Shown here in pieces: positions 7,923 to 55,671 of a stretch of DNA of 64,000 nucleotides. The DNA lies in NCBI GenBank assembly GCA_963714975.1, contig CAVQQD010000003.1, positions 416,001-480,000 of the forward strand, written 5' to 3'. The position numbers were made by a program, and so were the translations under genes. The notes under the pieces were generated by a model. That model had not been told where the DNA came from. It saw nothing but the letters and a program-made list of their open reading frames with translations, and searched no databases. The stretch's first letter is position 1; the number at the start of each line of letters is the position of its first letter. This stretch comes from an uncultured Gammaproteobacteria bacterium (GTDB lineage Bacteria > Pseudomonadota > Gammaproteobacteria > JAURND01).

Positions 7923-8444
7923 TTAAATTTGTCCTATTTGTATTTGTCCTGACTCTACTACTGCGACTGAATCATCGATTGTTGATTTATCTTTAGCAGT
8001 CATTTTCCCTGCTTTATAACAACCATACGCTGCACCCATCAGTGCTCCGACTAAAATACAGCCGGCCAGAATAAGGAGAATCTCAGGAAGATGTTCTTCC
8101 CCGACATTTTTAGATAAGAACAGAATGGGTGCACTTGCAAACATTCCCGCAAATCCCCCTAAGAAAGTATATCCATGAAAAGCACCCACTGCTTCGTCAC
8201 GTTTTTTTTGTGGAAGATCTTTTTCCAAGTGGTCATCCAATACTTTTCCCGCTGCGGCGGCAGCTAATACACCCATTAAGAAAGCGCCAAAAACTATAGT
8301 TGTTAAAAGAACCATTTCGTCAAAGTAAGCTAATTGACGTGCGCTTACGATAGCGCAAGCACACATTCCAAATACTGCCATGCCAACCACATGTCCCTTT
8401 CCTACATGAGAAAAGAAATTGTCAAATTTATCTTCGCTGCTCAT
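7923..8444 (-). CDS. Hypothetical 4-TM membrane protein
   Basis: 173-aa ORF with GAGG SD and four hydrophobic segments; no family recognised. Confidence 0.7.
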   Translation of the reverse strand: MSSEDKFDNFFSHVGKGHVVGMAVFGMCACAIVSARQLAYFDEMVLLTTIVFGAFLMGVLAAAAAGKVLDDHLEKDLPQKKRDEAVGAFHGYTFLGGFAGMFASAPILFLSKNVGEEHLPEILLILAGCILVGALMGAAYGCYKAGKMTAKDKSTIDDSVAVVESGQIQIGQI

Positions 8445-8551
8445 TATAATTCCTCGTCTAAGGTTAAAGAATTATCTTTTATAGACAATAGTAGTCAATT
8501 TGTCAATTAACTTCAGTAATTCCAGCGCGTAAGCTTTTTTTAAGAAAAAGT

Positions 8552-8580
8552 TTGCATTTAACCAAAAGCCGTTGAATAAT
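8552..8580 (+). promoter_or_regulatory. Putative sigma70 promoter of the module
   Basis: TTGCAT-17 bp-AATAAT, identical in copy 2. Confidence 0.45.
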
Positions 8581-8584
8581 ACTG

Positions 8585-8695
8585 AAACCTCAGATGCTCA
8601 CGCACCTGAGGCCGCGCCCTACAGATGCTTCGAACCATCTGCGAGGGTACTTCCATAACCCCAACCTTTAACGGAGGTCGGCAATCGTGGCTCAT
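8585..8695 (-). ncRNA. Putative cis-antisense sRNA covering the SD and start of the leader ORF
   Basis: Minus-strand TTTACG-16 bp-TAAGCT (8725-8698) conserved in both copies; region has three hairpins and ends in hairpin CCTCAGGTGC..GCATCTGAGG followed by TTT. Confidence 0.4.
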
Positions 8696-8908
8696 GCAGC
8701 TTACTTCATTACGCGTTGGCGTAAAACTCTTTTTTGTAGGTTTGTCACATTTTTTTACCTGCTGTTATTTAGGCGGTTTTGCTGCGCCTGGATAAACAGG
8801 CTTTTACCTTGCATACACTCCTCTTGTGTCCGCACTGTGTTATGGAACTGGGTAGGAGCTGGCGGGTTTTTTGGTGGCATTCTTTCATTACCAGAGGGTA
8901 GGCAGTAG
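8687..8908 (+). CDS. 73-aa hydrophobic leader peptide (unknown family)
   Basis: GGAGGT SD 8 nt upstream; start is GTG here and ATG at the same position in copy 2; the visible indel between copies is 3 nt. Confidence 0.55.
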   Translation: MAHAAYFITRWRKTLFCRFVTFFYLLLFRRFCCAWINRLLPCIHSSCVRTVLWNWVGAGGFFGGILSLPEGRQ

Positions 8909-8990
8909 CAGAGGAGTTTAGGTGTGGCGAAAAGCACCCTTCTCTGCTCTTCGCCATTACCTACTAAACCTCTACACTGCCTACATTTTT
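8898..8990 (+). terminator. Long imperfect hairpin followed by T-run (attenuator/terminator-like)
   Basis: GTAGGCAGT/ACTGCCTAC, AGAGG/CCTCT, GTTTA/TAAAC, TGGCGAA/TTCGCCA arms, then ATTTTT. Confidence 0.5.
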
Positions 8991-9048
8991 CATGTTGATT
9001 ACACAGCACTTTCAGAAAATCAAATTCAATCATTTCTCGGAGAATTTT

Positions 9049-9471
9049 ATGACACAACAATCACAACACATTCCTGTCGCACGTATTTTAGTAACCGAAG
9101 ACAATCGCATGGCCGCAAAAGCCGCGCAAGGTTTGTTCAAAGATAAAAATTGCCACGTTGATGTAGAAGGTTCTGCCACAGCAACGCTCGAACATTTACA
9201 GGATCACTACGATTTGCTGGTGATCGACTTAGGCCTCCCGGATTTCAGCGGCCTCATTCTCGCGGAGAAAATTCGCAATTCTGGCGCCGCACTTGCAGCA
9301 GCCCCGATTGTGATTTTAACCGCCCATGGAGATGAAACGCATAAGGCGCAAGCCAAAAAGTTGGGATTAAATGGTTTTTTGCAGAAACCCTTAACCTCTG
9401 CGTTATGTGATCGATTGCTGTGGCGTTTTGTGCGTATGCCTGTCGATAATAATTATTTTCTTGAGAATTAA
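9049..9471 (+). CDS. Single-domain response regulator (CheY-like receiver)
   Basis: ILVTEDN, DLLVIDLGLPDFSG (phospho-Asp), IVILTA, FLQKP; GGAG SD before ATG9049. Confidence 0.88.
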   Translation: MTQQSQHIPVARILVTEDNRMAAKAAQGLFKDKNCHVDVEGSATATLEHLQDHYDLLVIDLGLPDFSGLILAEKIRNSGAALAAAPIVILTAHGDETHKAQAKKLGLNGFLQKPLTSALCDRLLWRFVRMPVDNNYFLEN

Positions 9472-10043
9472 TCGTACTGGCTTGGTAACTACGGTATTGT
9501 TATTTATTGTTGTAGGCTAGACTAGCCCTCTTTTTTAAAGAGGGCTAATCATGGAAAAAATATATTCCCTGCATGACCGATTTTTCCGCGCAGCGATGAG
9601 CGAGCCGCGTGTGGCGAAGGCGTTTTTCGAACATCATTTACCAGAAGAAATTCTCAAAATAATCGATCTCGACACCTTGCGTTTAGAAAAAGAAATTTAT
9701 GTGAACTCAAAGCTAAAGCTAGTGATGACAGATATAGTATTTTCAGTAAATTATGCAAAAAATCCCGGCCTTTTGTATTTGTTGCCGGAACACCGCAGTA
9801 GCTTTACGCGTTGGCAAGCATTTATTTTATTGGTTTATATGGTTATGATTCTGGATTATCATCATAAAAAATTTAAGAACCAGAAGCATTTGCCTTTAAT
9901 TTATCCCATAGTTTTCTATCACGGTGGAGTTATCTATCCTGGCTCAACAGATTTATCAAATTTATTTCAGGATTCCCAAGGAATAATGCCACCCATATCC
10001 TGTCAACCATTTCAGCTGATTGATTTGAATACCATTCCAGATC

Positions 10044-11593
10044 CAATGGCACTACCTTAAGCCACAGAATATTTTAAAATCCTTTTATTTATTTTACGTA
10101 GCAATTTTTCTTTTTCGATTGCTCTGTTTCTCTTCAAGGCTGGAAATGGTTTCGGTCTTTGCTTGACTAGCCTGGGCTCCACCCTATCTGGTCTATTTCC
10201 AACTTTGTTTTGCACAATTAATTTTAACATCTCAATATACATTTTATGGTTGCTCACCTGATTTGAGCTTATAAAATAAGGAATAAATTCATTTAGTAGC
10301 TGCACACTTCCCTTAAAGCTTATTTCCCATGGATTAACGCCATACTCATAACAAGCTTTTGCTATAATTATTCTGATAAAATTATATGCTAATAAATGAA
10401 TTCCTATTTCTTTTCTAACCATTTCTGGTGTTTTGCACGATAACATATCCATATTCATGATACTTTTAATACTTCGCAAATTAAGCTCCACCTCCTACCT
10501 TCGCTTATATATTTGGGCAAGCTCTGCTTTGTGGTATTTTTTGTCTAAAAATGTTGTAACGTATATGTGGCCTGATACTTTAAATTCCCGTATGGAAATT
10601 TGATCGGGGTATGCCTCATATTGCTTTTGTGTCATCCATTCCGGTTTCTGTGGTTTCTCCCAGTTGACAATGTGATCATTTTTACCCAATTTTTGTCCCA
10701 TTCTAAAATCATAATTCCTTTGACTTTGTCCGCGAAAAACACCATCAGCTCCTATTTTTTTTAAGTCCGCCATAAGAAAAAAATTGGGGTAATAACGGTC
10801 ACCCAGCACAATATCGTCGGCTTTAATGCAGTTTATAATTTCTCTTAATAATGAGATTTCTCCTGTGCCCTTTCCTTTGTGAGCCCCTATTGCATAATCT
10901 ATTACGGTTCCCCGCGTCAGTGACATAACGGCTACTATTCGCGCCATAGGAAATCCAGCCCCTTTTTTCTGATTACCATGCTGAGGAAATTTTTTTTGAT
11001 TAGCTTTTGTATCCGACATTTTGACGGTAGATCCATCAAATGCTTTTAATTCTCGGCCATAGACTTTCCATCTCATTGGAATAGATTTCAAAGGGAAAGC
11101 TCCAGATTCTTTAACTAATGCCTTCACAGTATCTTCAGGCAATCGCTTTCTGGCCTTACAATAGGGGCCAGTATTTGAGCTTATTTTATTCTGCTTCTTT
11201 TTTTTACTATGCAGCTGCTCCACAACAACACCAGCAACCGCTTTTTTGCAGGATTTATCTGGATTTAAAACTTGTTTAATAAACGTAAATAAGGTTTTGG
11301 TGGGGCTATATATCCGGTCACGATATTCCCGGCACTCTCTAAGTATCTTCTGACATTTTTCTGAATTCAATAGGTTTAACAGGAAAATGTCTGGTGCACC
11401 ATCAGCCAATTCTTGTCTTTTATTTTTAACTTGCTTAATTTTATTTTTCTTTTTAAAATTCACAGATCAGTTTCCTTTTTTTATTATTGTGTGTTTGCTA
11501 CAACAATAATATTAAATTTGGAAACTGATTTCATCTTTTTTCATCTAAATCATAGGCTTATATTCATCTTTGCTCCTTAAGGTAGTGCCATTG
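10044..11593 (-). mobile_element. IS4-family insertion sequence (1550 bp)
   Basis: Perfect 18-bp IRs CAATGGCACTACCTTAAG (10044-10061, 11576-11593); 11-bp TSD CATTCCAGATC (10033-10043, 11594-11604). Confidence 0.95.
10057..11463 (-). pseudogene. IS4 transposase with in-frame TAG
   Basis: DGS, LGDRYY and YKRR*EVELNLRSIK (YREK signature; the usual Trp reads TAG at 10495-10497). Confidence 0.88.
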
Positions 11594-11849
11594 CATTCCA
11601 GATCAAGCTTTGAAAAAGGATGATTGGTTAAGTATAATGCACATTACTATGAAGTATATTCGAGCACCAGATATGTTGCCCCATCTGGCGGGCTTGGCAA
11701 ATGCCTGGAGAATAGTGGATCAGGCAGGTGGGCATGATTATTTAGAAGCAGTCTTTACTTATATTCTTGACCAAGCTGAAATAAGTAATCTCGATAAATT
11801 ATTTGAGCTCATACAAGAAAGTTTATCTAATAACTCACAGGAGAACGTT

Positions 11850-12083
11850 ATGACCATTGCACAACAATTAATAGAACGAGGGCGCCAAGAAGCTATGACC
11901 ATTGCACAACAATTAATAGAACGAGGGCGCCAAGAAGGGCGACAACAGGGTCAGTTTGAAACGGCGGAAGCAATAGCCAAAAGACTTTTACAAACAGATT
12001 TTTCTATTGAGCAAGTAGCCCGATTTACCACGCTGCCGCCAGAAATAGTGGCTAAGCTAGAGCAAGAGCAGACGGTTACCTAG
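11850..12083 (+). CDS. Putative internal small protein RpnS (C-terminal antitoxin module)
   Basis: AGGAG (11839-11843) just upstream of in-frame ATG of MTIAQQL; 45-bp tandem duplication at 11849-11938. Confidence 0.55.
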   Translation: MTIAQQLIERGRQEAMTIAQQLIERGRQEGRQQGQFETAEAIAKRLLQTDFSIEQVARFTTLPPEIVAKLEQEQTVT

Positions 12084-13337: not shown

Positions 13338-14866
13338 TGATAGATCAGGTCGGTGCTTTCGTCGTGTTGCAATGCGGCTTGTTCGTCAAGTTCTTTACTT
13401 AATTGCCTCGCCTGTGCGAGTGTCTGGTGAATATGAGGCGCTTCATTGCCCTCTTGGCGGAAGTCGGTGTAAACACTTCCATATTGTGGATGTAACAATT
13501 CTTCTGCTTTCTGTAGATTAGTTCTAGAATCTTCTATTAAAATGATGTTGCGGTCCTGGGGATCTCTATTAAAATGTTTAGCTGCTGCACAGAGATGAAA
13601 GTTTTTACCATGGCTTTTTTGTGCCTTCTCTTCAGGAAGCCAGCTTTCTATATGGATATTTTTAAGGATCTGTTCATCCAATCCAATTTTTTCTTTCAAG
13701 AAGCGCCGAATTAACTCGACATGCGGATTATAACTCACGATAGCAATATCGTGACCCGCATAGAACAATTCTTCGAATGCTGTCTTCCATTCATGCGCTA
13801 AACCGCGGGGCTTGATATTTTGGATAGCTTTCCATTGCGTCTCTGTGTTTGTATCGTGCAGTCCACAGAGGGTGAGCATCTCATAAACATGCTGGTTGGT
13901 TATGGTTTCATCAAAATCAAAAGCGATAAGCCCCCTTTTTATTGGCCGACTTGCTTTATTCTCTAGGGTGGGTCTTCGGTTTTGCGCGCCATTTGAGCCG
14001 ATGTTGGAGGATTTTGCTTGTCTGATAAATGGTGCAGCTAGAAGGCTAAGAGCAAGTATTATCGAAAAAGTTACGCTGATAGCTAAGGTACTCTCCGAAG
14101 AGAGGTTCAATTTATCCCCTAATACATTTGCCATCGAATAAGTCCCAAATGCTATTCCTGGTATCATGGCAAGATAACTAAGGGTTAGTAGAACATGAGC
14201 ATGAGCATTTGAGTTATTCTTCTGCTGAAATTGTGGTTTATTGGTTATAGTAGCAGTACCGTGAAATATTATAGTAGCAACTAGATGGAGTATTGCGGCA
14301 GGTAAGGCATAGGGGGAGGGAAGTCCTAGATATATAAAACCAGAACTAACTACTGTAGCTGTAATGTTTGCAGCTAAATCTGAGTAGGTGGTGTTGCCTA
14401 ATTGGCAGCTTTGGGTAGATTTTGCCGGGTCTAATTTTTGTTTTGCCTGCTTGTAGACCTCCCGAGAGAAATTGGCTGTGGCTAGGGCCAATATTAGCGC
14501 AACAGTTATACTGATAGCTAAGCTAGCTTCTGAAGAGATAGCCAATTTTTCCCCTAATACATTCGTCGCTTCATAATATGCAAATGGCACTCCTGCTATA
14601 AAGGGTAAAGCGCTAGCAAAAAGCACTTTGTTATAGGTATTGATTTTCTGCTCATTGTCTTGCTTTGGTGCACTCGATATCAATTGACATTGTTTCTCAA
14701 TTACGTAGTTATGTATTATATACGCTGTTAGATTGATTATGGCCAAGGGTAAAGCATAGGGCGAAGGAGTTCCTAGGTATATAAAGCCTGAATTAATAGT
14801 AGCAAATGTTGCGAAAACTGAGAGGTAATTGATGTCAGCAATGTTATCGCGTGTGTTTTGTTGCAT
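13331..14866 (-). CDS. Membrane protein with internally duplicated TM module and C-terminal HAD-like domain
   Basis: Two copies of SGFIYLG(T/L)PSPYALP...NVLG(E/D)KL..SSE..LAIS; AFDFDETIT (DxD), IVS, K..H, IEDS HAD-type motifs. Confidence 0.7.
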   Translation of the reverse strand: MQQNTRDNIADINYLSVFATFATINSGFIYLGTPSPYALPLAIINLTAYIIHNYVIEKQCQLISSAPKQDNEQKINTYNKVLFASALPFIAGVPFAYYEATNVLGEKLAISSEASLAISITVALILALATANFSREVYKQAKQKLDPAKSTQSCQLGNTTYSDLAANITATVVSSGFIYLGLPSPYALPAAILHLVATIIFHGTATITNKPQFQQKNNSNAHAHVLLTLSYLAMIPGIAFGTYSMANVLGDKLNLSSESTLAISVTFSIILALSLLAAPFIRQAKSSNIGSNGAQNRRPTLENKASRPIKRGLIAFDFDETITNQHVYEMLTLCGLHDTNTETQWKAIQNIKPRGLAHEWKTAFEELFYAGHDIAIVSYNPHVELIRRFLKEKIGLDEQILKNIHIESWLPEEKAQKSHGKNFHLCAAAKHFNRDPQDRNIILIEDSRTNLQKAEELLHPQYGSVYTDFRQEGNEAPHIHQTLAQARQLSKELDEQAALQHDESTDLIYQP

Positions 14867-23961: not shown

Positions 23962-25850
23962 GAGCAACCTATTTAAGTGAAAATCAAACTGAATTTCTGC
24001 TGTATGCTCCTTACGCCGAAGCAGTTGAGCTGGTCATTGGGGCTCCTGGCGGGTTTAAACAAGCCATGCTAAGACAAGAAAAGGGTTATTTTCATTGTAT
24101 TGCTCAAAATGTGCCGCCAGGCAGTCTTTATTGGTACCGTTTCAACCAGCAATGCTATGCTGATCCAGCTTCTCGTTTTCAACCGGAAGGAATTTTCGGA
24201 CCTTCGCAAGTTATTGATGCCTGTTACAGCAATTCCCGCTCTATAGAACTTTGGCCGACGGGTGACGCGTGGGGCAACAACGCCGCGCGCAGCGAGCGAG
24301 CACGACGGGTTGCCCGCGCGGCAGGACCCGTCGGGGATCAGAGCTTCAGCGGGTGGCGGGGTTTAGCGCTTAGTCAGTATATTATTTATGAAGTACATGT
24401 AGGTACTTTTACTTCCGAGGGTACTTTTGCAGCACTGATGGCGAAGCTGGATTGGATAGGCGAGCTTGGTGTGACCGCCATTGAGTTAATGCCAGTGGCG
24501 CAATTTCCTGGAGATAGAAATTGGGGCTATGATGGCGTGTTTCCTTTTGCAGTGCAGAATAGCTACGGCACACCGGAACAATTAAAAGCGTTAGTGCAAG
24601 CCTGTCATCAGCGGGGTTTAGCAGTGATTTTGGACGTGGTTTATAATCACGTAGGCCCGGAAGGAAATCACTTCAATCAATTTGGTCCGTATTTTACCGA
24701 GCGGTATCACACGCCTTGGGGAGCTGCGATCAATTTTGATGGACCCAGCAATCATGAAATTCGCCGCTTCTTCATAGAAAATGCTTTAATGTGGGTTGGC
24801 GATTATCACATCGATGCGTTGCGTTTGGATGCTCTGCACGCGGTATTTGATTATTCTGCTGATCCTTTTTTGGCTGAATTAGCTGAGCAGGTTCATCATT
24901 TTGCTCGACAGACCGGTCGATTCATTTATTTATTTGCTGAAGCCGCTCGGAATGACTTGAAATTTGTTCATCGCAAAAAGCAGGGAGGATACGGCTTAGA
25001 TGTGCAGTGGAATGAGGATTTTCATCATGCCTTACATGCGGTATTAACGGGAGAAAGAAGCGGTTATTATCAAGATTTTGGTCAATTAGCTCAATTGGCA
25101 AAAGCTTTTAAAGAAGGCTACGTGCTTACCGAGCGGGGTCAATCTTCTGCGGAGGTTGCAGGGGAAAAATTTCTAGTATTTGGTCAAAATCACGATCAAA
25201 TTGGAAATCGTATGCTAGGAGAGCGCTTCACTCAGTTGCTTAATTTTGCCCAGCGCAAACTTGCCGCCAGTGTGATTTTGCTGTCTCCTTATATTCCACT
25301 GTTATTTATGGGAGAAGAATATGGTGAAGAAGCACGCTTTTGGTATTTTATCAGTCACGCTAATCCTAATTTAATTCAGGCAGTGAGAGAAGGTCGACGC
25401 AAAGAATTTAGCCTAGATGATAATTCGAATGAAATGCTGGACCCGCAAGCAATCGAGACATTTATACAATCGAAACTGCATCATCATTTGCGCCAGGAAG
25501 ACTGGCATAAACCATTATATACCTGGTACCAACAATTAATTTCCTATCGAAAAAATATACCGACATTAGCGCACTTAGACAAAATAAATACCGTTGTGCG
25601 TTGTAATACTGAATTGATGCTAATGACGGTACATCGGTGGCATCAAAGTGATGAAGTCTTTATTGTTTTCTTTTTTGTTAACACTGAATCTAAGATCTCT
25701 ATTACCACGCCACCTGGAGTATGGCACAAAATATTAGATTCCGAGGATAGAGAATGGGGAGGCAACGGCAGTTCCTTGCCCCCAAAAATTTCATCTGAGA
25801 CCCAATTAATATTGAGGGCATATGTTACAGCTATTTACCGTAAAACGTGA
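23952..25850 (+). CDS. treZ: Malto-oligosyltrehalose trehalohydrolase, with in-frame repeat insertion
   Basis: DPASRFQPEG, RNWGYDG, DVVYNH, LRLDALH, QNHDQIGNR; start taken at ATG23952. Confidence 0.92.
   Translation: MRLGATYLSENQTEFLLYAPYAEAVELVIGAPGGFKQAMLRQEKGYFHCIAQNVPPGSLYWYRFNQQCYADPASRFQPEGIFGPSQVIDACYSNSRSIELWPTGDAWGNNAARSERARRVARAAGPVGDQSFSGWRGLALSQYIIYEVHVGTFTSEGTFAALMAKLDWIGELGVTAIELMPVAQFPGDRNWGYDGVFPFAVQNSYGTPEQLKALVQACHQRGLAVILDVVYNHVGPEGNHFNQFGPYFTERYHTPWGAAINFDGPSNHEIRRFFIENALMWVGDYHIDALRLDALHAVFDYSADPFLAELAEQVHHFARQTGRFIYLFAEAARNDLKFVHRKKQGGYGLDVQWNEDFHHALHAVLTGERSGYYQDFGQLAQLAKAFKEGYVLTERGQSSAEVAGEKFLVFGQNHDQIGNRMLGERFTQLLNFAQRKLAASVILLSPYIPLLFMGEEYGEEARFWYFISHANPNLIQAVREGRRKEFSLDDNSNEMLDPQAIETFIQSKLHHHLRQEDWHKPLYTWYQQLISYRKNIPTLAHLDKINTVVRCNTELMLMTVHRWHQSDEVFIVFFFVNTESKISITTPPGVWHKILDSEDREWGGNGSSLPPKISSETQLILRAYVTAIYRKT
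24227..24353. repeat. Family-D repeat inserted in frame in treZ
   Basis: CAGCAATTCCCGCT...GACGGGTGACGCG...GGACCCGTC...TTCAGCGGG; GC-rich island in an AT-rich gene; homologues at 44961-45041 and 60016-60095. Confidence 0.85.
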
Positions 25851-25854
25851 TATG

Positions 25855-25968
25855 ACCGGCACAAGCCGCAGGGGTGACGCATGGGACAACACCACCGCGC
25901 GCAGCGTGCGAGCACGGTGGGTTGCCCATGCGGCAGGACCTCGTAGGCGAGTTGGTGGGCGGTACAAG
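25855..25968. repeat. Family-D-related repeat
   Basis: GGGTGACGCATGGGACAACACCACCGCGCGCAGCGTGCGAGCACGGTGGGTTGCCCATGCGGCAGGACC matches the internal part of 24260-24330. Confidence 0.8.
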
Positions 25969-33163: not shown

Positions 33164-33316
33164 AATCCCCTCTCTCGCTTGCGGGAGAAGGTGCCCCTTC
33201 GACAGGCTCAGGGCAGGCTGGCGGGTGAGGGTGTCTCTCCGTCATTCCGAGGAGCTTGCGACGAGGGATTTCCATGCCAATGGCAGGAGATCCCTCACTT
33301 CGCTCGGGATGACGAA
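33164..33316. repeat. Composite repeat (A+C+B), overlapping the ctaA stop
   Basis: Same modules as 514-728, with the B module in the opposite orientation. Confidence 0.85.
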
Positions 33317-51982: not shown

Positions 51983-52948
51983 ATGAAGAAAGCATTTCTA
52001 GGCATTGATATCAGTAAAAATACATTTGATGTAGCTGTGCTAATGGAAGATAAGATAAAAACTCAAAAATTCAACAATAACGAGCAAGGCTTTAATAAAT
52101 TACTTGTATGGCTAAACCAGAAGGAAATCGTGTTGTCTCAAGCTTGTATGGAAGCAACCAGTATTTACGGGCAGGCATTAGCCGAATTTCTTTATGCTCA
52201 AGAAATCCCTATAAGCGTTGTTAATCCTGCGAGAATTAAAGGATTTTCTCAAAGTGAATTAGCCCGCTCTAAAAATGATATTCTTGATGCAAAATTAATT
52301 GCAAGATTTTGTAAGTTGATAGGCCCAGAATTATGGCAACCAACTCCTGAACCGATTAAAATATTACAGCAATGGGTTAGGAGATTGGATGATTTAATCG
52401 CTATGCACAGACAAGAAGAAAACCGATTAGAAGTTTCTGATCATTGTTTAAAGGAGCACATACAAGAGAACATTAGCCACTTAGAAAACAATATTAAGGA
52501 AGTTAAAAATGTCATTAAAAATCACATAAATAGCGATCCTGACATGAAGAAAAAAAGCAAGCTATTGCAATCTATTCCTGGTATTGGAGAAGCAACTACA
52601 GCGCAGATATTGGCTTTTATTGGGAATGTGAGTAAATTCAATAATGCGAAAGAATTGGCGGCATTCGTTGGTCTTAATCCCAAGCAACGACAATCAGGAA
52701 CCTCTATCAATGGTAGAGCTAGACTCTCTAAAACAGGTGATTCGGCTCTAAGAAAAGCATTTTATATGCCCGCTGTTGTCGCCATGAGACATAACCCAAT
52801 ACTCAGAAATTTTTCTATGCGACTAGAAAAAACCGGCAAACACAAAATGGTTATTATTGGCGCAGTAATGAGAAAGCTTGTTCATATGATTTACGGGATA
52901 CTAAAATCTGAAACCGTGTTTGATCAAAATATATTAAAATTAGCTTGA
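51983..52948 (+). CDS. IS110 recombinase
   Basis: [35 protein letters not shown]. Confidence 0.94.
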
Positions 52949-52997: not shown

Positions 52998-54206
52998 TTA
53001 CGCAACTTGTGCGCAACTCGCTTCGGTGGGTTCTTGCTTCCTCGAGCGACCTGACTGCGTCTTCTCTCCACAAGCTAGCAAGCGGTGCCCCCGCTCTAAA
53101 ATATTGATCGCGCCAACCACATCGGCATGGTGGCTATAGCCACAACGCACGCACGCAAACTCAGCTTGCGTTTTGCGATTGTCTGCACAAACGTGCTGAC
53201 AGGCAGGACAGGTTCGACTGGTATTTTTCGGATCCACCGCCAGAAAAATGCCACCGTTCCACTCAAGCTTATAAGCTAACTGGCGTCGAAATTCGCCCCA
53301 ACCCTGATCCAGTATGGCGCGATTTAAACCTGCCTTTTGTCTGACCTGGCGACCGTGCTGCTCACAGTTGCCTTTGGCAGATTTCGACATTGCAGCTATC
53401 TGCAAATCCTCAACACAGACGAGCGCGTGGTTTTTGCTAATCGCGGTGCTGGTTTTGTGCAGAAAATCTTGTCTGACATTGGCAATTGTGTTGTGAGTCT
53501 TTTGAACCCGCCTTTGGGCTTTGATCCAATTACGACTAAATTTTTTCTTACGCTTCAAGCGACGTTGATAATGCGCAAGGCGTGCTTGATGTTTTTTGAA
53601 GCTATTCATGGGTTCGACATAGGTCCCATCACTCATCGTAGCAAAACGTGCAATACCCATATCAATACCCACTGGGGTAGTAGCTGTTGGCAAGGGTTGA
53701 CTCTCTTCACGCTCGGTCTGCACTGATACAAACCACAAGCCATTGCATTGCTTGACGATGACATTTTTAATTTTCCCTACTACATCGCGACTGTTGCGAT
53801 AGCGTATCCATCCCAATTTTGGCAGAAAAATACAGTTATTATCTTGATCCAGCTTAAACCCTTGTGGAAAACGAAAACTAGCTGATGAGTGAGCTTTTTT
53901 CTTGAATTTGGGGAAAGCAGCACGGTAGGCGAAGAAGTTTTTAAATGCGCGATCAAGGTCTTTAGTGACTTGTTGCAAGGTTTGGGAGGGTGATTGTTGC
54001 AGGTAGGGCATTTCTTTTTTCCATACTAACAACCAGTGATTCATACCAAAGCTATGGGTAAACGGTTTGTTTTCGGCGTAGAGCTCTTGTTGACGCGCTA
54101 ATGCTAAATTCCAAACCTTACGTGCATTACCCGCAAACTGACTCATCGCGCGTTTTTGCGCACCATTCGGCTCAATACGGAATTTAAATGCTTGCTGGAT
54201 TTTCAT
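52998..54206 (-). CDS. tnpB: RNA-guided endonuclease TnpB
   Basis: N-terminal HTH (AFKFRIEP), RuvC GIDMG / VEDL / HADVVGA, Zn finger CPAC..CVRC. Confidence 0.94.
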
Positions 54207-54284
54207 GCGACTATTATATTCTGGTCTATGCCAAACTCAATACAGTAAAAAGCGAATCCATCACTTATGTGGAGCTCCACATAA

Positions 54285-54461
54285 GATCACCAGCAAATCG
54301 TAGTGATCCTGTAAATGTTCGAGCGTTGCTGTGGCTGAACCTTCTACATCGACGTGGCAATGTTTGTCTTTGAACAAACCTTGCGCGGCTTTTGCGGCCA
54401 TTCGGTTGTCTTCGGTTACTAAAATACGTGCGATAGGGGTGCTTTGTGATTGTTGTGTCAT
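54285..54461 (-). pseudogene. Receiver domain copy 2, truncated at the tnpB element left boundary
   Basis: Near-identical to the 9049 gene up to DHYDLLVI, then unrelated sequence; phospho-Asp lost. Confidence 0.85.
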
Positions 54462-54630
54462 AAAATTCTCCGAGAAATGATTGAATTTGATTTTCTGAAA
54501 GTGTTGCGTAATCAACATGAAAAATGTAGGCAGTGCAGAGGTTTAGTAAGTAATGGCGAAGAGCAATTTCTCGTCATCCCGGCATTCATGCCGGGACAAC
54601 AAAGACACTTCGCCACACCTCACTCCTCTG

Positions 54631-54855
54631 CTACTGCCTACCCTCTTGTAATGAAAGAATGCCACCAAAAAACCTGCCCCAAGCTCCTACCCAGTTCCAT
54701 AACACAGCAAGGACAGGCGAGGAGTGTATACAAGGTAAAAGCCTGTTTGTCCAGGCGCAACAAAGCCGCCTGAATAACAGCAGGTAAAAAAATGAGACAA
54801 ACCTACAGAAAAGAGTTTTACGAAAACTCGTAATGAAGTAAGCTGGACGAGTCAT
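54631..54855 (-). CDS. 74-aa leader peptide, copy 2
   Basis: GGAGGT SD plus ATG; MTRPAYFITSFRKTLFCRFVSFFYLLLFRR... paralogous to 8687-8908. Confidence 0.55.
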   Translation of the reverse strand: MTRPAYFITSFRKTLFCRFVSFFYLLLFRRLCCAWTNRLLPCIHSSPVLAVLWNWVGAWGRFFGGILSLQEGRQ

Positions 54856-55008
54856 GACTGCCGACCTCCGATGAAGGTTGGGGTTATGGAAGTACCCTCG
54901 CAGATGGTTTGGACATCTGTAGGGCGCGGCCTCAGGTGCGTGAGCATCTGAGGTTTCAGTATTATTCAACGGCTTTTGGTTAAATGCAAACTTTTTCTTA
55001 AAAAAAGC

Positions 55009-55671
55009 TTATTTGATTTTTTTCAACAAATAAGCGCATTCATAAAGGTCATGAATTTTTCTTGCCACCCAATGGGACGGAATCTCAGTAATGAACTCTT
55101 TCTCTAGTTGCGTCACACTAAAGTGACTATTAAAAAATAATTTGACATCTTCATATGGAGTAGAAAAGGGAGGTTCCGCGACGTCCGGGGCGCCATGTTC
55201 AAAAACTATCAGTAACATTTTACTATTTAGAGGGATAACAGTTTTTAACCAATTAATATACTGGCTGCGTAATGTTTTGGGTGGTAATGCAGTTAAAGAG
55301 CCTCTATCGTACACGGCCTTAATTTCTGAAAGATGTTGAGAAGTTAAATCAAACAAATCTCCATGGTAAAGGGTACAAGATGCATTTTGATATATTTGGA
55401 AAGAATTATCTTTAAGCTGAGTGATATCAAGTTTGTTTTCTTTAAGAAAATCAGAAATGGCAATAGGGCTTATTTCTACGCCGATTACTCGTTGATTTTG
55501 TTGCATTAGCCAGGTCATGTCTACGCTTTTTCCACACAAGGGAACAAAAACCTTTTCCTGGCTTTGTAGATCTAGAGTTTTAAAATGTTTAATTAGAAAT
55601 CGATGTGGAGTAAGTTGATTAAAAGGGATATTTCCTACTTCCCAACGATTTAGCCAATATTTTTTATCCAT
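55009..55671 (-). CDS. Thiopurine S-methyltransferase family protein
   Basis: YWLNRW, VFVPLCGKSVDM, GVEIS, GDLF, VYDRGSL, PPFS. Confidence 0.9.
   Translation of the reverse strand: MDKKYWLNRWEVGNIPFNQLTPHRFLIKHFKTLDLQSQEKVFVPLCGKSVDMTWLMQQNQRVIGVEISPIAISDFLKENKLDITQLKDNSFQIYQNASCTLYHGDLFDLTSQHLSEIKAVYDRGSLTALPPKTLRSQYINWLKTVIPLNSKMLLIVFEHGAPDVAEPPFSTPYEDVKLFFNSHFSVTQLEKEFITEIPSHWVARKIHDLYECAYLLKKIK

Follow-up and report, generated by a model that had tools for sequence, protein, structure and literature searches.

The trpL-type attenuators, mgtL/mgtA, tnaC and speFL are switches in the leaders of operons that depend on an open reading frame (ORF) and operate through Rho or through RNA structure, and the immI region of the phages P1 and P7 consists of c4 RNA, icd and ant. 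Here we describe an element that, by analogy, would work most like the former, the translated regulatory leaders. It consists of the ~520 nt upstream of a gene for a single-domain receiver, is found twice in the 64-kb stretch of DNA analysed here (the window), and is present in ~25 copies in the genome to which the window belongs, that of an uncultured gammaproteobacterium (G000; 2.56 Mb on three contigs). We consider it probable, with some reservation, that these copies form a multi-copy family of long (~440-570 nt), promoter-proximal, structured and translated mRNA leaders acting in cis on the next gene. The leader family is previously undescribed, is real and is statistically well supported; no description of it was found in the literature searches made. 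It is ordinary in kind, being a cis-regulatory leader, and unusual in its size, its copy number, its pseudoknot-like architecture and its frame-agnostic ORF.

The likeness to trpL, mgtL, tnaC and speFL lies in a promoter-proximal leader in which occupancy of a small ORF and alternative pairings decide expression. In contrast to these systems the ORF is far longer here, with 57-78 codons in most leaders; neither regulatory codons nor an arrest motif are conserved in it, it drifts in frame, and it ends inside a 31-39-bp hairpin. The leader as a whole measures 440-570 nt, includes a pseudoknot-like long-range helix and occurs in 2-26 copies per genome, and no terminator/antiterminator pair was identified in it. 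As an attenuator of the trp or his type it fails on clustered codons, the conserved bases of the 73-75-codon ORF being read in different frames. With the immI region the element shares an ORF of ~73 codons upstream of the regulated gene and short complementary segments near the ribosome-binding site (RBS) of this ORF, and here, too, expression of the downstream gene may plausibly depend on translation of the small ORF. Unlike in c4-icd-ant, one of the two proposed pairs lacks conservation, the partner in the conserved pair is found ~150 nt into the ORF and not at the RBS, and there is neither a phage context nor a C4 match in Rfam. An earlier note on this DNA had likened the element to the P1 c4-icd and P4 CI-kil regions; at the level of RNA families this likeness is not supported, as Rfam gives no match and the complement that covaries lies deep in the ORF. 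The Infernal-type check for C4 and SymR that the note had suggested, made with the families of Rfam 15 (riboswitches included) on the 64-kb window, returned zero matches at the gathering score; at E-values up to 10 the region 8400-9600 returned four chance-level matches (rhtB, mir-483, MESTIT1_3 and SNORD10), all far below threshold. With the orphan leader motifs and riboswitch candidates of Rfam the element shares a conserved cis RNA, covarying helices and a functionally coherent set of downstream genes, but it differs from them in including an obligatory ORF.

The number of copies in G000 depends little on the method. BLAST with positions 8530-9050 finds 20 matching places, nhmmer with a profile of 16 copies gives 24 matches at 23 loci, nhmmer with a profile of the 5' domain adds one locus, and a covariance model (CM; cut-off E <= 1e-5) gives 26 matches. 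Seventeen copies are full or near-full, belong to subfamilies A-E and are 66-72% identical to the window copy. Subfamily F (4 copies) is more distant; subfamily H has 3 copies, one of them a deletion derivative, and there is one further fragment. The earlier note had counted two copies, which holds for the window but not as a total.

Selection acts on the structure of the leader. The 478-nt leader folds with a minimum free energy (MFE) of -156 kcal/mol (z = -4.55), and 0 of 100 shuffled sequences fold as well. On the 16 copies RNAalifold predicts 70 pairs, 27 of them with a compensatory change. The five local hairpins together comprise 45 pairs, 22 of which show double changes; over the 16 copies 95.5% of the cells pair, compared with 85.2% in shuffled alignments (0 of 500 reach the observed value), and pairing drops to 35-48% if the partners are slid against each other. 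For 40 leaders from seven genomes and from metagenomes, placed in a CM alignment, 89.1% of the cells pair, compared with 74.1% after shuffling (again 0 of 500). The conserved segment CACUUCCA lies 3' of P1 and P2, and invariant unpaired stretches, among them GCCGCGCC and GGCACUUCCA, stand between the covarying helices.

The helix P3 pairs TTCCATAAC (8651-8659) with GTTATGGAA (8839-8847), the latter ~150 nt into the ORF and ~190 nt along the RNA from the 5' strand, and covaries across subfamilies. Its compensatory variants include CATAAC/GTTATG, CAGCAAC/GTTGCTG, CACAAC/GTTGTG and ATAATC/GATTAT, and subfamily F contributes a further compensated variant. When strands are swapped, cognate strands pair at -12.0 kcal/mol and strands of other subfamilies at -7.7 kcal/mol. 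P3 escaped a column-wise helix search on a MAFFT alignment, as subfamilies B and C have an insertion of one base pair. As P3 crosses the covarying hairpin h3, the two must form a pseudoknot or alternative folds. The split complementarity described in the earlier note is hence genuine for TTCCATAAC/GTTATGGAA and absent for its second part, CCTAC/GTAGG: the latter is unconserved, its segments belong to the lower stem of P2 and to h3, and the lower stem of P2, which holds CCTAC, shows no compensatory change within G000. A more extended complementarity between the 5' domain and the distal ORF, beyond P3, was not convincing (cognate -25.8, other subfamilies -23.1, shuffled -21.4 +/- 0.85 kcal/mol) and was rejected. 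Between the 5' strand of P3 and the ORF, a small hairpin would occlude the Shine-Dalgarno sequence (SD). At least five partner variants (AACCT/AGGTT, AAACT/AGTTT, AAATCT/AGATTT, AAGCT/AGCTT and AACTC/GAGTT) were seen by eye in the alignments; the hairpin is not in register in the CM alignment, and its covariation is judged by eye, without a formal count.

The leader ends with the long hairpin P5. In a swap test on 22 leaders from all clades, cognate arms pair at -51.2 kcal/mol and arms of other subfamilies at -39.3 kcal/mol. The loop of P5 can take up palindromic inserts 30-90 nt long; such small repeats have landed in several leaders (window ~54545-54575, minus strand, and C2:904k, C3:63k, C3:72k and C3:175k in G000), leaving the stem undisturbed. 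The internal GGGTTTTTT has no stem directly 5' of it.

A further element of the architecture is the ORF, which is maintained as an open frame while its peptide drifts. In both window copies GGAGGT lies 8 nt upstream of the start; as stated in the earlier note, the SD and the frame are kept over a 3-nt indel and a GTG/ATG swap. The ORFs of G000 measure 73-75 codons, with the 17th full copy frameshifted. In-frame stops are absent from 16 of 16 copies, and the other two frames contain 0-6 stops each. Between subfamilies dN/dS is 0.39-1.03 (mean ~0.67), with values of 0.78 and 0.93 in the two shifted control frames, and codon periodicity is absent (column entropy of 0.85/0.76/0.84 at positions 1-3). 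A phase map places subfamilies B and C one base out of phase with A over ~37 columns and D and E over ~60 columns, and all rejoin the same stop. The out-of-phase stretch takes in the conserved block GGGTTTTTTGGTGG; likewise the conserved AGCTTAC is read as Ala-Tyr in G000 and G005 and as Ser-Leu in the metagenome clade. Clustered codons for a sensed amino acid are not conserved anywhere in the ORF. The stop is always found ~14 nt into the 5' arm of P5 and is paired in the predicted MFE folds, and a motif TAG-[C/A]-AGAGG is seen repeatedly in copies from G001, G003 and metagenomes. Among the 40 leaders the ORF has at least 45 codons in 36, and a strong duplex surrounds the stop in 33. Since peptide and frame drift and the stop stays fixed, selection appears to see the passage of ribosomes to a fixed end point. 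The earlier note had named as contrary signs a total of only two copies, a lack of covariation and frequent frameshifts between homologues; copies are more numerous and the helices covary, whereas frameshifts do occur but are compensated.

A sigma-70-like promoter stands at the 5' end of the leader, and its -35 and -10 hexamers are kept at the same place in 15 of the 16 G000 leaders of subfamilies A-E examined. A direct repeat, TAAG/TTAA-N7-TAAG/TTAA, with a period of 11 bp precedes the -35 hexamer by 4-9 nt in 23 of 37 promoters by a strict regular expression; it is present beyond the window copy (L056, L060, L066-L072) and is spelled slightly differently in subfamily C. From its sequence the repeat looks like a candidate site for a winged-helix response regulator, and it may resemble the PmrA box of Legionella and Coxiella.

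The coordinates of all features are collected in Table 1.

Table 1. Features of the two leader copies in the window, and genes that follow the leader in other genomes.
Feature	Position	Strand	Basis and details
Copy 1 promoter, sigma-70-like	8530..8580	plus	Promoter scan; TAAG-N7-TAAG 8530-8544, -35 TTGCAT 8552-8557, -10 AATAAT 8575-8580
Hairpin P1, CCTCAG...CTGAGG	8588..8611	plus	Double changes in 5/8 pairs over 16 copies; 99.2% of cells paired
Hairpin P2, CAGATG...CATCTG, lower stem CCCT/AGGG	8617..8647	plus	Covaries within the genome; double changes in 8/8 pairs in 40 leaders
P3 5' strand, TTCCATAAC	8651..8659	plus	Inside the conserved segment CACTTCCA; swap test
Small SD-occluding hairpin, AACCT 8663-8667 facing GGAGGT 8673-8678	8663..8678	plus	Covariation by eye
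Copy 1 upstream ORF, GTG start, 73 codons	8687..8908 (stop TAG 8906-8908)	plus	Open, with the same stop, in 16/17 full copies
Hairpin h1, TTACGCG...CGCGTAA, inside the ORF	8709..8724	plus	4/6 pairs covary; 4/4 modelled pairs covary in 40 leaders
Hairpin h2, inside the ORF	8770..8792	plus	10 pairs, 3 with double changes; 94.4% paired
Hairpin h3, GCTTTTACC...GGTAGGAGC	8800..8859	plus	Double changes in 6/8 pairs; loop holds conserved TCCTC and the P3 3' strand
Long terminal hairpin P5	8898..8984	plus	31-39 bp in 16/16 G000 copies tested; ORF stop in the 5' arm
Copy 1 receiver gene, single-domain, 140 aa	9049-9471 (RBS GGAG 9039-9042)	plus	Pfam Response_reg, E 5.1e-19
TnpB-type insertion sequence (IS) gene truncating copy 2, outside the leader	52998..54206 (402-residue ORF)	minus	Pfam OrfB_IS605, Cas12f1-like_TNB, HTH_OrfB_IS605
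Copy 2 receiver gene, 5' fragment, residues 1-64	54270..54461	minus	tblastn, 89% identity
Leader copy 2	54462..55011	minus	Repeat blocks and alignment; CM match 54796-54960, 137.7 bits
Copy 2 upstream ORF, ATG start, 74 codons	54631-54855	minus	One 3-nt indel relative to copy 1
Genes in G005: OTT_1508-like deaminase, DUF3050, unknowns	3' of leader		
Genes in G001, G002, G003: DUF3050, after some copies followed by a PAS-type kinase gene	3' of leader		
Gene in G093: csrA-like, 64 residues	L055 475-669		Identified by eye
Genes on metagenome contigs: small Sel1-like proteins			Weak Pfam match

The census of copies and downstream genes that the earlier note had called for gives, for G000, mostly receivers and operons that end in a receiver. 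A single-domain receiver is reached from almost all copies, except for the copy at C2:714812, one deletion derivative and one fragment. At C2:714812 (plus strand, subfamily H) the small ORF, from its start, continues as an ORF of 287 residues, which may be a deletion fusion. The RBS and start of the downstream gene lie ~50-70 nt 3' of P5. The receiver of copy 1 passes Response_reg (PF00072) with 68.9 bits at a cut-off of 30.2, over residues 13-117 of its 140, and has no output domain. In subfamilies A, B, C and F the receiver gene is found directly 3' of the leader; in D and E it is the last of a three-gene operon. The first gene of this operon codes for a protein of 248 residues, which matches solved cyclodipeptide synthases, best of all the chain 5ocd_A over residues 6-230 (E 6.5e-53); five more chains of this name match with E-values from 1.4e-29 to 0.84, and Pfam gives no match at E 0.01. 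The structure 5OCD is named in one source as Fdum-CDPS of Fluoribacter dumoffii (PMC12945691).

The second gene of the operon codes for a 465-residue kinase with PQ-loop, PAS_4, HisKA and HATPase_c domains, and the third for the receiver. Operons of synthase, kinase and receiver are found at L021 564-3119, with paralogues in G000 at C2:14k, C2:391k and C3:802k. It is possible that these repeated operons, each with a cyclodipeptide synthase, a PAS histidine kinase and a receiver, represent a cyclodipeptide signalling module. A pattern search of genome contigs for related loci, with the cyclodipeptide synthase as query, gave 46 matches, of which 0 were confirmed. Several D and E copies are without most of the synthase and kinase genes, and the receivers of subfamily C start with sequence resembling the N-terminus of the synthase; from this loss and this N-terminus we infer that the lone receivers are deletion derivatives. 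Receiver-like segments are found at 35 places in G000 by tblastn, only some of them with a leader. Between subfamilies the leaders are 0.46-0.73 identical in nucleotides, and the receivers 0.52-0.60 in nucleotides and 0.41-0.53 in amino acids. The divergence of leader and receiver is similar in extent; the duplications are therefore old, and the leader has been retained throughout.

In addition to the receiver, the earlier note had placed an Rpn nuclease under the control of copy 1. This is not supported: a hairpin with a T-run (9515-9527) intervenes between the receiver gene and the Rpn-like gene (Transposase_31/YhgA-like in Pfam, E 8.4e-43), and Rpn-like genes are found only after three near-identical copies of subfamily A. 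The gene (9551-12083) is cut by a DDE-transposase element (ORFs at 10057-11463, minus strand); beyond it, at 11610-12083, the C-terminal part of the gene may continue, with no Pfam match. Another receiver gene, at C2:458k (L076), is interrupted by pieces of this transposase element, and an intact Rpn-like gene of 380 residues is located 3' of the third subfamily-A copy, at C2:319.7k.

The two window copies are inverted relative to each other and share three collinear blocks in a repeat search, 8530-8627/54914-55011 (98 nt, 100%), 8633-8865/54677-54909 (233 nt, 89%) and 8945-9225/54285-54565 (281 nt, 95%). In the pairwise alignment identity begins abruptly at 8528-8530, 5' of which the sequences are unrelated, and differences are concentrated in the loops of the second and the last hairpin, the latter of which carries a palindromic insert of 30 nt in copy 2. 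The sharp 5' boundary of two copies and the confinement of hairpin differences mainly to loops, as originally described, are thereby borne out. Of the extent then given to the module the 5' boundary is retained and the 3' end of copy 2 is not: position 54285 is where an IS200/IS605-type TnpB element has inserted and no natural boundary. A tblastn search found no further piece of the copy 2 receiver gene within the window. Adjoining the TnpB element is a gene for an IS110-family transposase (51983-52948). Three copies of the leader have been damaged by other elements. The same TnpB element hit window copy 2 and the copy at C1:103976, there just 3' of the small ORF, and the copy at C2:391070-393616 (L077) is split into a 5' and a 3' piece by a 2.5-kb group II intron, whose protein (624 residues) contains RVT_1, Intron_maturas2 and HNH. 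Repeat search and copy alignment found no terminal repeats at the leader ends and no associated mobility gene, in agreement with the earlier statement that the module has neither inverted repeats nor a transposase of its own. The window contains three other repeats, namely a 121-nt direct pair (71%) within 14049-14604, a GC-rich direct pair of 69 nt (87%) within 24260-25940, and a 60-nt inverted pair of a palindromic element (636-695 with 33237-33296).

The GTDB family of G000 makes up the whole order and counts nine genomes; by the CM, six of these harbor the leader (26 matches in G000, 2 in G001, 4 in G002, 6 in G003, 4 in G005 and 2 in G008), and none was found in G004 (95% complete), G006 and G007 (63% complete). 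Of 151 genomes sampled from the class, five give a CM match, namely G000, G003, G093, G127 and G053. The match in G093, a member of another family, is clear (E 1.7e-17); the match in G127 is weak and precedes a 77-residue acidic ORF. The match in G053 lies in apparent coding sequence, is without an ORF and was treated as false. Relatives of the leader thus occur in one or two families beyond its own. An exact-pattern scan of 185,579 species genomes, which may omit records of the window's own genome, gave seven stretches, four of them true and all of these in G005 (JASGJS010000001.1). The other three come from metagenome-assembled genomes of an Acidobacteriota, a Sulfurovaceae and a 'Proteobacteria bacterium', and nhmmer confirmed none of them; the stretch in the 'Proteobacteria bacterium' falls within an aminotransferase-like ORF. 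Among 11 stretches from a pattern scan of metagenome contigs, nhmmer confirms five, which stem from AT-richer relatives; one is marginal (E 0.37) and five are unconfirmed. A search of sequencing runs listed no RNA run with the element; one run of soil-metagenome DNA matches in part, with 0.24 of the sampled words. Copies in G005 are without P1. After one of them (L036 285-1769, minus strand) the OTT_1508-like deaminase protein has 495 residues. In the related genomes the haem-oxygenase-like DUF3050 enzyme sits in the position of the synthase.

The leaders probably control the downstream signalling genes, and the core of the original proposal is supported: the RNA element is undescribed, strongly structured and positioned for control of a receiver gene. 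In the mechanism that we favor, what counts would be the transit of ribosomes between an occluded start and the stop inside P5, and not the peptide made. Alternative pairings round the RBS of the ORF, the local SD hairpin or P3, would set the frequency of ribosome loading. Passage and termination of ribosomes would unwind h1-h3, P3 and the base of P5, and the unwinding would alter what becomes of the downstream message; the most plausible route is that premature (Rho-type) termination, or processing of the P5 duplex, is prevented. The predicted duplex is as long as a substrate of RNase III, and control of its cleavage would be one example.

Several observations weigh against this reading. The modelled mean probability that the downstream RBS is unpaired (11 leaders) is 0.36 in the free leader, 0.42 with the stop region of the ORF masked and 0.37 with the whole ORF masked. 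As the RBS does not open consistently, simple translational coupling is not supported, and an effect on completion or stability of the transcript would be favored over direct coupling. A T-run (TTTTT) is found 3' of P5 in subfamily A only, hence P5 is not a general intrinsic terminator. The helix CACUUC/GGAGU shows zero double changes across the 40 leaders, and four of these leaders have short ORFs (31-37 codons). The dN/dS slightly below 1, together with an N-terminal motif A-Y-x-I-...-K-T-L-F common to G000 and G005, suggests that some constraint may act on the first ~17 residues of the peptide. Moreover, we infer both the co-transcription of leader and gene and the translation of the ORF.

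Other explanations share part of this evidence. The ~400 nt up to P5 could be an independent non-coding RNA gene that acts in trans, serves as a sponge for a protein such as CsrA, or has a dual function. We regard this as unlikely, even though the element has its own conserved promoter, covaries more strongly than many leaders, contains many GGA motifs, precedes a csrA-like gene in one relative and ends, in subfamily A, in a terminator-like P5 with T-run: nearly all copies keep a fixed distance and orientation to a downstream start codon, the ORF and its RBS are maintained, and in most subfamilies no T-run follows P5. An element sensing a ligand or tRNA, be it through a riboswitch-like 5' aptamer or through an ORF that serves as an attenuator peptide reading the supply of charged tRNA, would have no run of a particular codon to read and a peptide whose frame drifts, would stand before genes unrelated to the use of tRNA, has no riboswitch match in Rfam, and lacks P1 in G005. 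It is a quite improbable explanation on these grounds, notwithstanding that it suits operons whose first enzyme consumes aminoacyl-tRNAs (the ancestral-looking cargo being the cyclodipeptide synthase, with its match to 5ocd_A at E 6.5e-53), that ribosomes must traverse the ORF, and that GCCGCGCC and GGCACUUCCA remain invariant and unpaired between covarying helices.

We give little credence to a selfish or mobile cassette of promoter and leader that copies itself in front of genes. The sharp 5' edge, the ~25 copies, the unrelated genes downstream in other genomes and the greater likeness of copies within a genome than between genomes would all fit such a cassette, but it has neither terminal inverted or direct repeats nor a mobility gene, and the nearby IS elements and the group II intron interrupt copies instead of carrying them. 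Leader and receiver diverge in step, down to a protein identity of 41-53%, which fits duplication of whole genes, and the presence of DUF3050 after the leader in four genomes of three genera fits inheritance. The self-spreading addiction or defence unit suggested in the earlier note is not supported, given the lack of repeats and mobility gene and this co-divergence. Least credible to us is a module similar to type I toxin-antitoxin systems, of the hok/sok or c4-icd type, in which translation of a toxic membrane peptide is held by fold-back of the mRNA and by an antisense RNA. The hok/sok system resembles the element in a compact mRNA of ~400 nt with a long-range fold-back, an occluded RBS and multiple copies, and the covarying P3 amounts to such a fold-back in a long and tightly folded mRNA, a resemblance in working and not a proof of membership. 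The G000 peptides are moreover basic, their net charge being +1 to +9, and they are rich in Phe, Trp and Cys. In contrast to hok/sok, a toxin-like peptide is not conserved: the subfamilies share no conserved hydrophobic segment (in G000 the best Kyte-Doolittle window of 19 residues scores 0.88-1.87, at varying places and often with Arg or His), the frame changes between subfamilies, and dN/dS is ~0.67. The small ORF of the earlier note is maintained, but a toxic role for it is not supported. A consensus scan of the opposite strand found no promoter-like site common to all subfamilies (none in A, D and E, and sites at different places in B and C), Rfam contains no matching toxin-antitoxin RNA family, and behind every intact copy, at a fixed distance, stands a separate gene with its own RBS.

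The reading as translated leaders acting in cis can be extended, tentatively and with low confidence, to a regulon-wide sensor RNA. Here a pseudoknotted leader of ~450 nt would use its frame-agnostic ORF as a track for ribosomes, and the rate or completion of their passage would set the output of a whole set of signalling operons, namely modules of signal synthase, kinase and receiver, tRNA-dependent cyclodipeptide synthases among them, tying signalling to translational capacity or to the supply of charged tRNA; a protein or small ligand may additionally bind to the conserved 5' domain. With its compact size the leader is suited to reporter constructs in a laboratory host. It offers a clean natural case of selection for translation of an upstream ORF regardless of the peptide, with compensated frameshifts and a stop fixed in a hairpin, and it adds a large family of structured RNAs to a lineage of gammaproteobacteria that is little known, uncultured and probably host-associated. 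For this lineage the leaders point to co-regulated signalling operons that consist of a cyclodipeptide synthase or DUF3050 enzyme, a PAS histidine kinase and a single-domain receiver; if the extended reading as a sensor RNA is true, cell-cell or host signalling would be coupled directly to translational capacity or the supply of charged tRNA.

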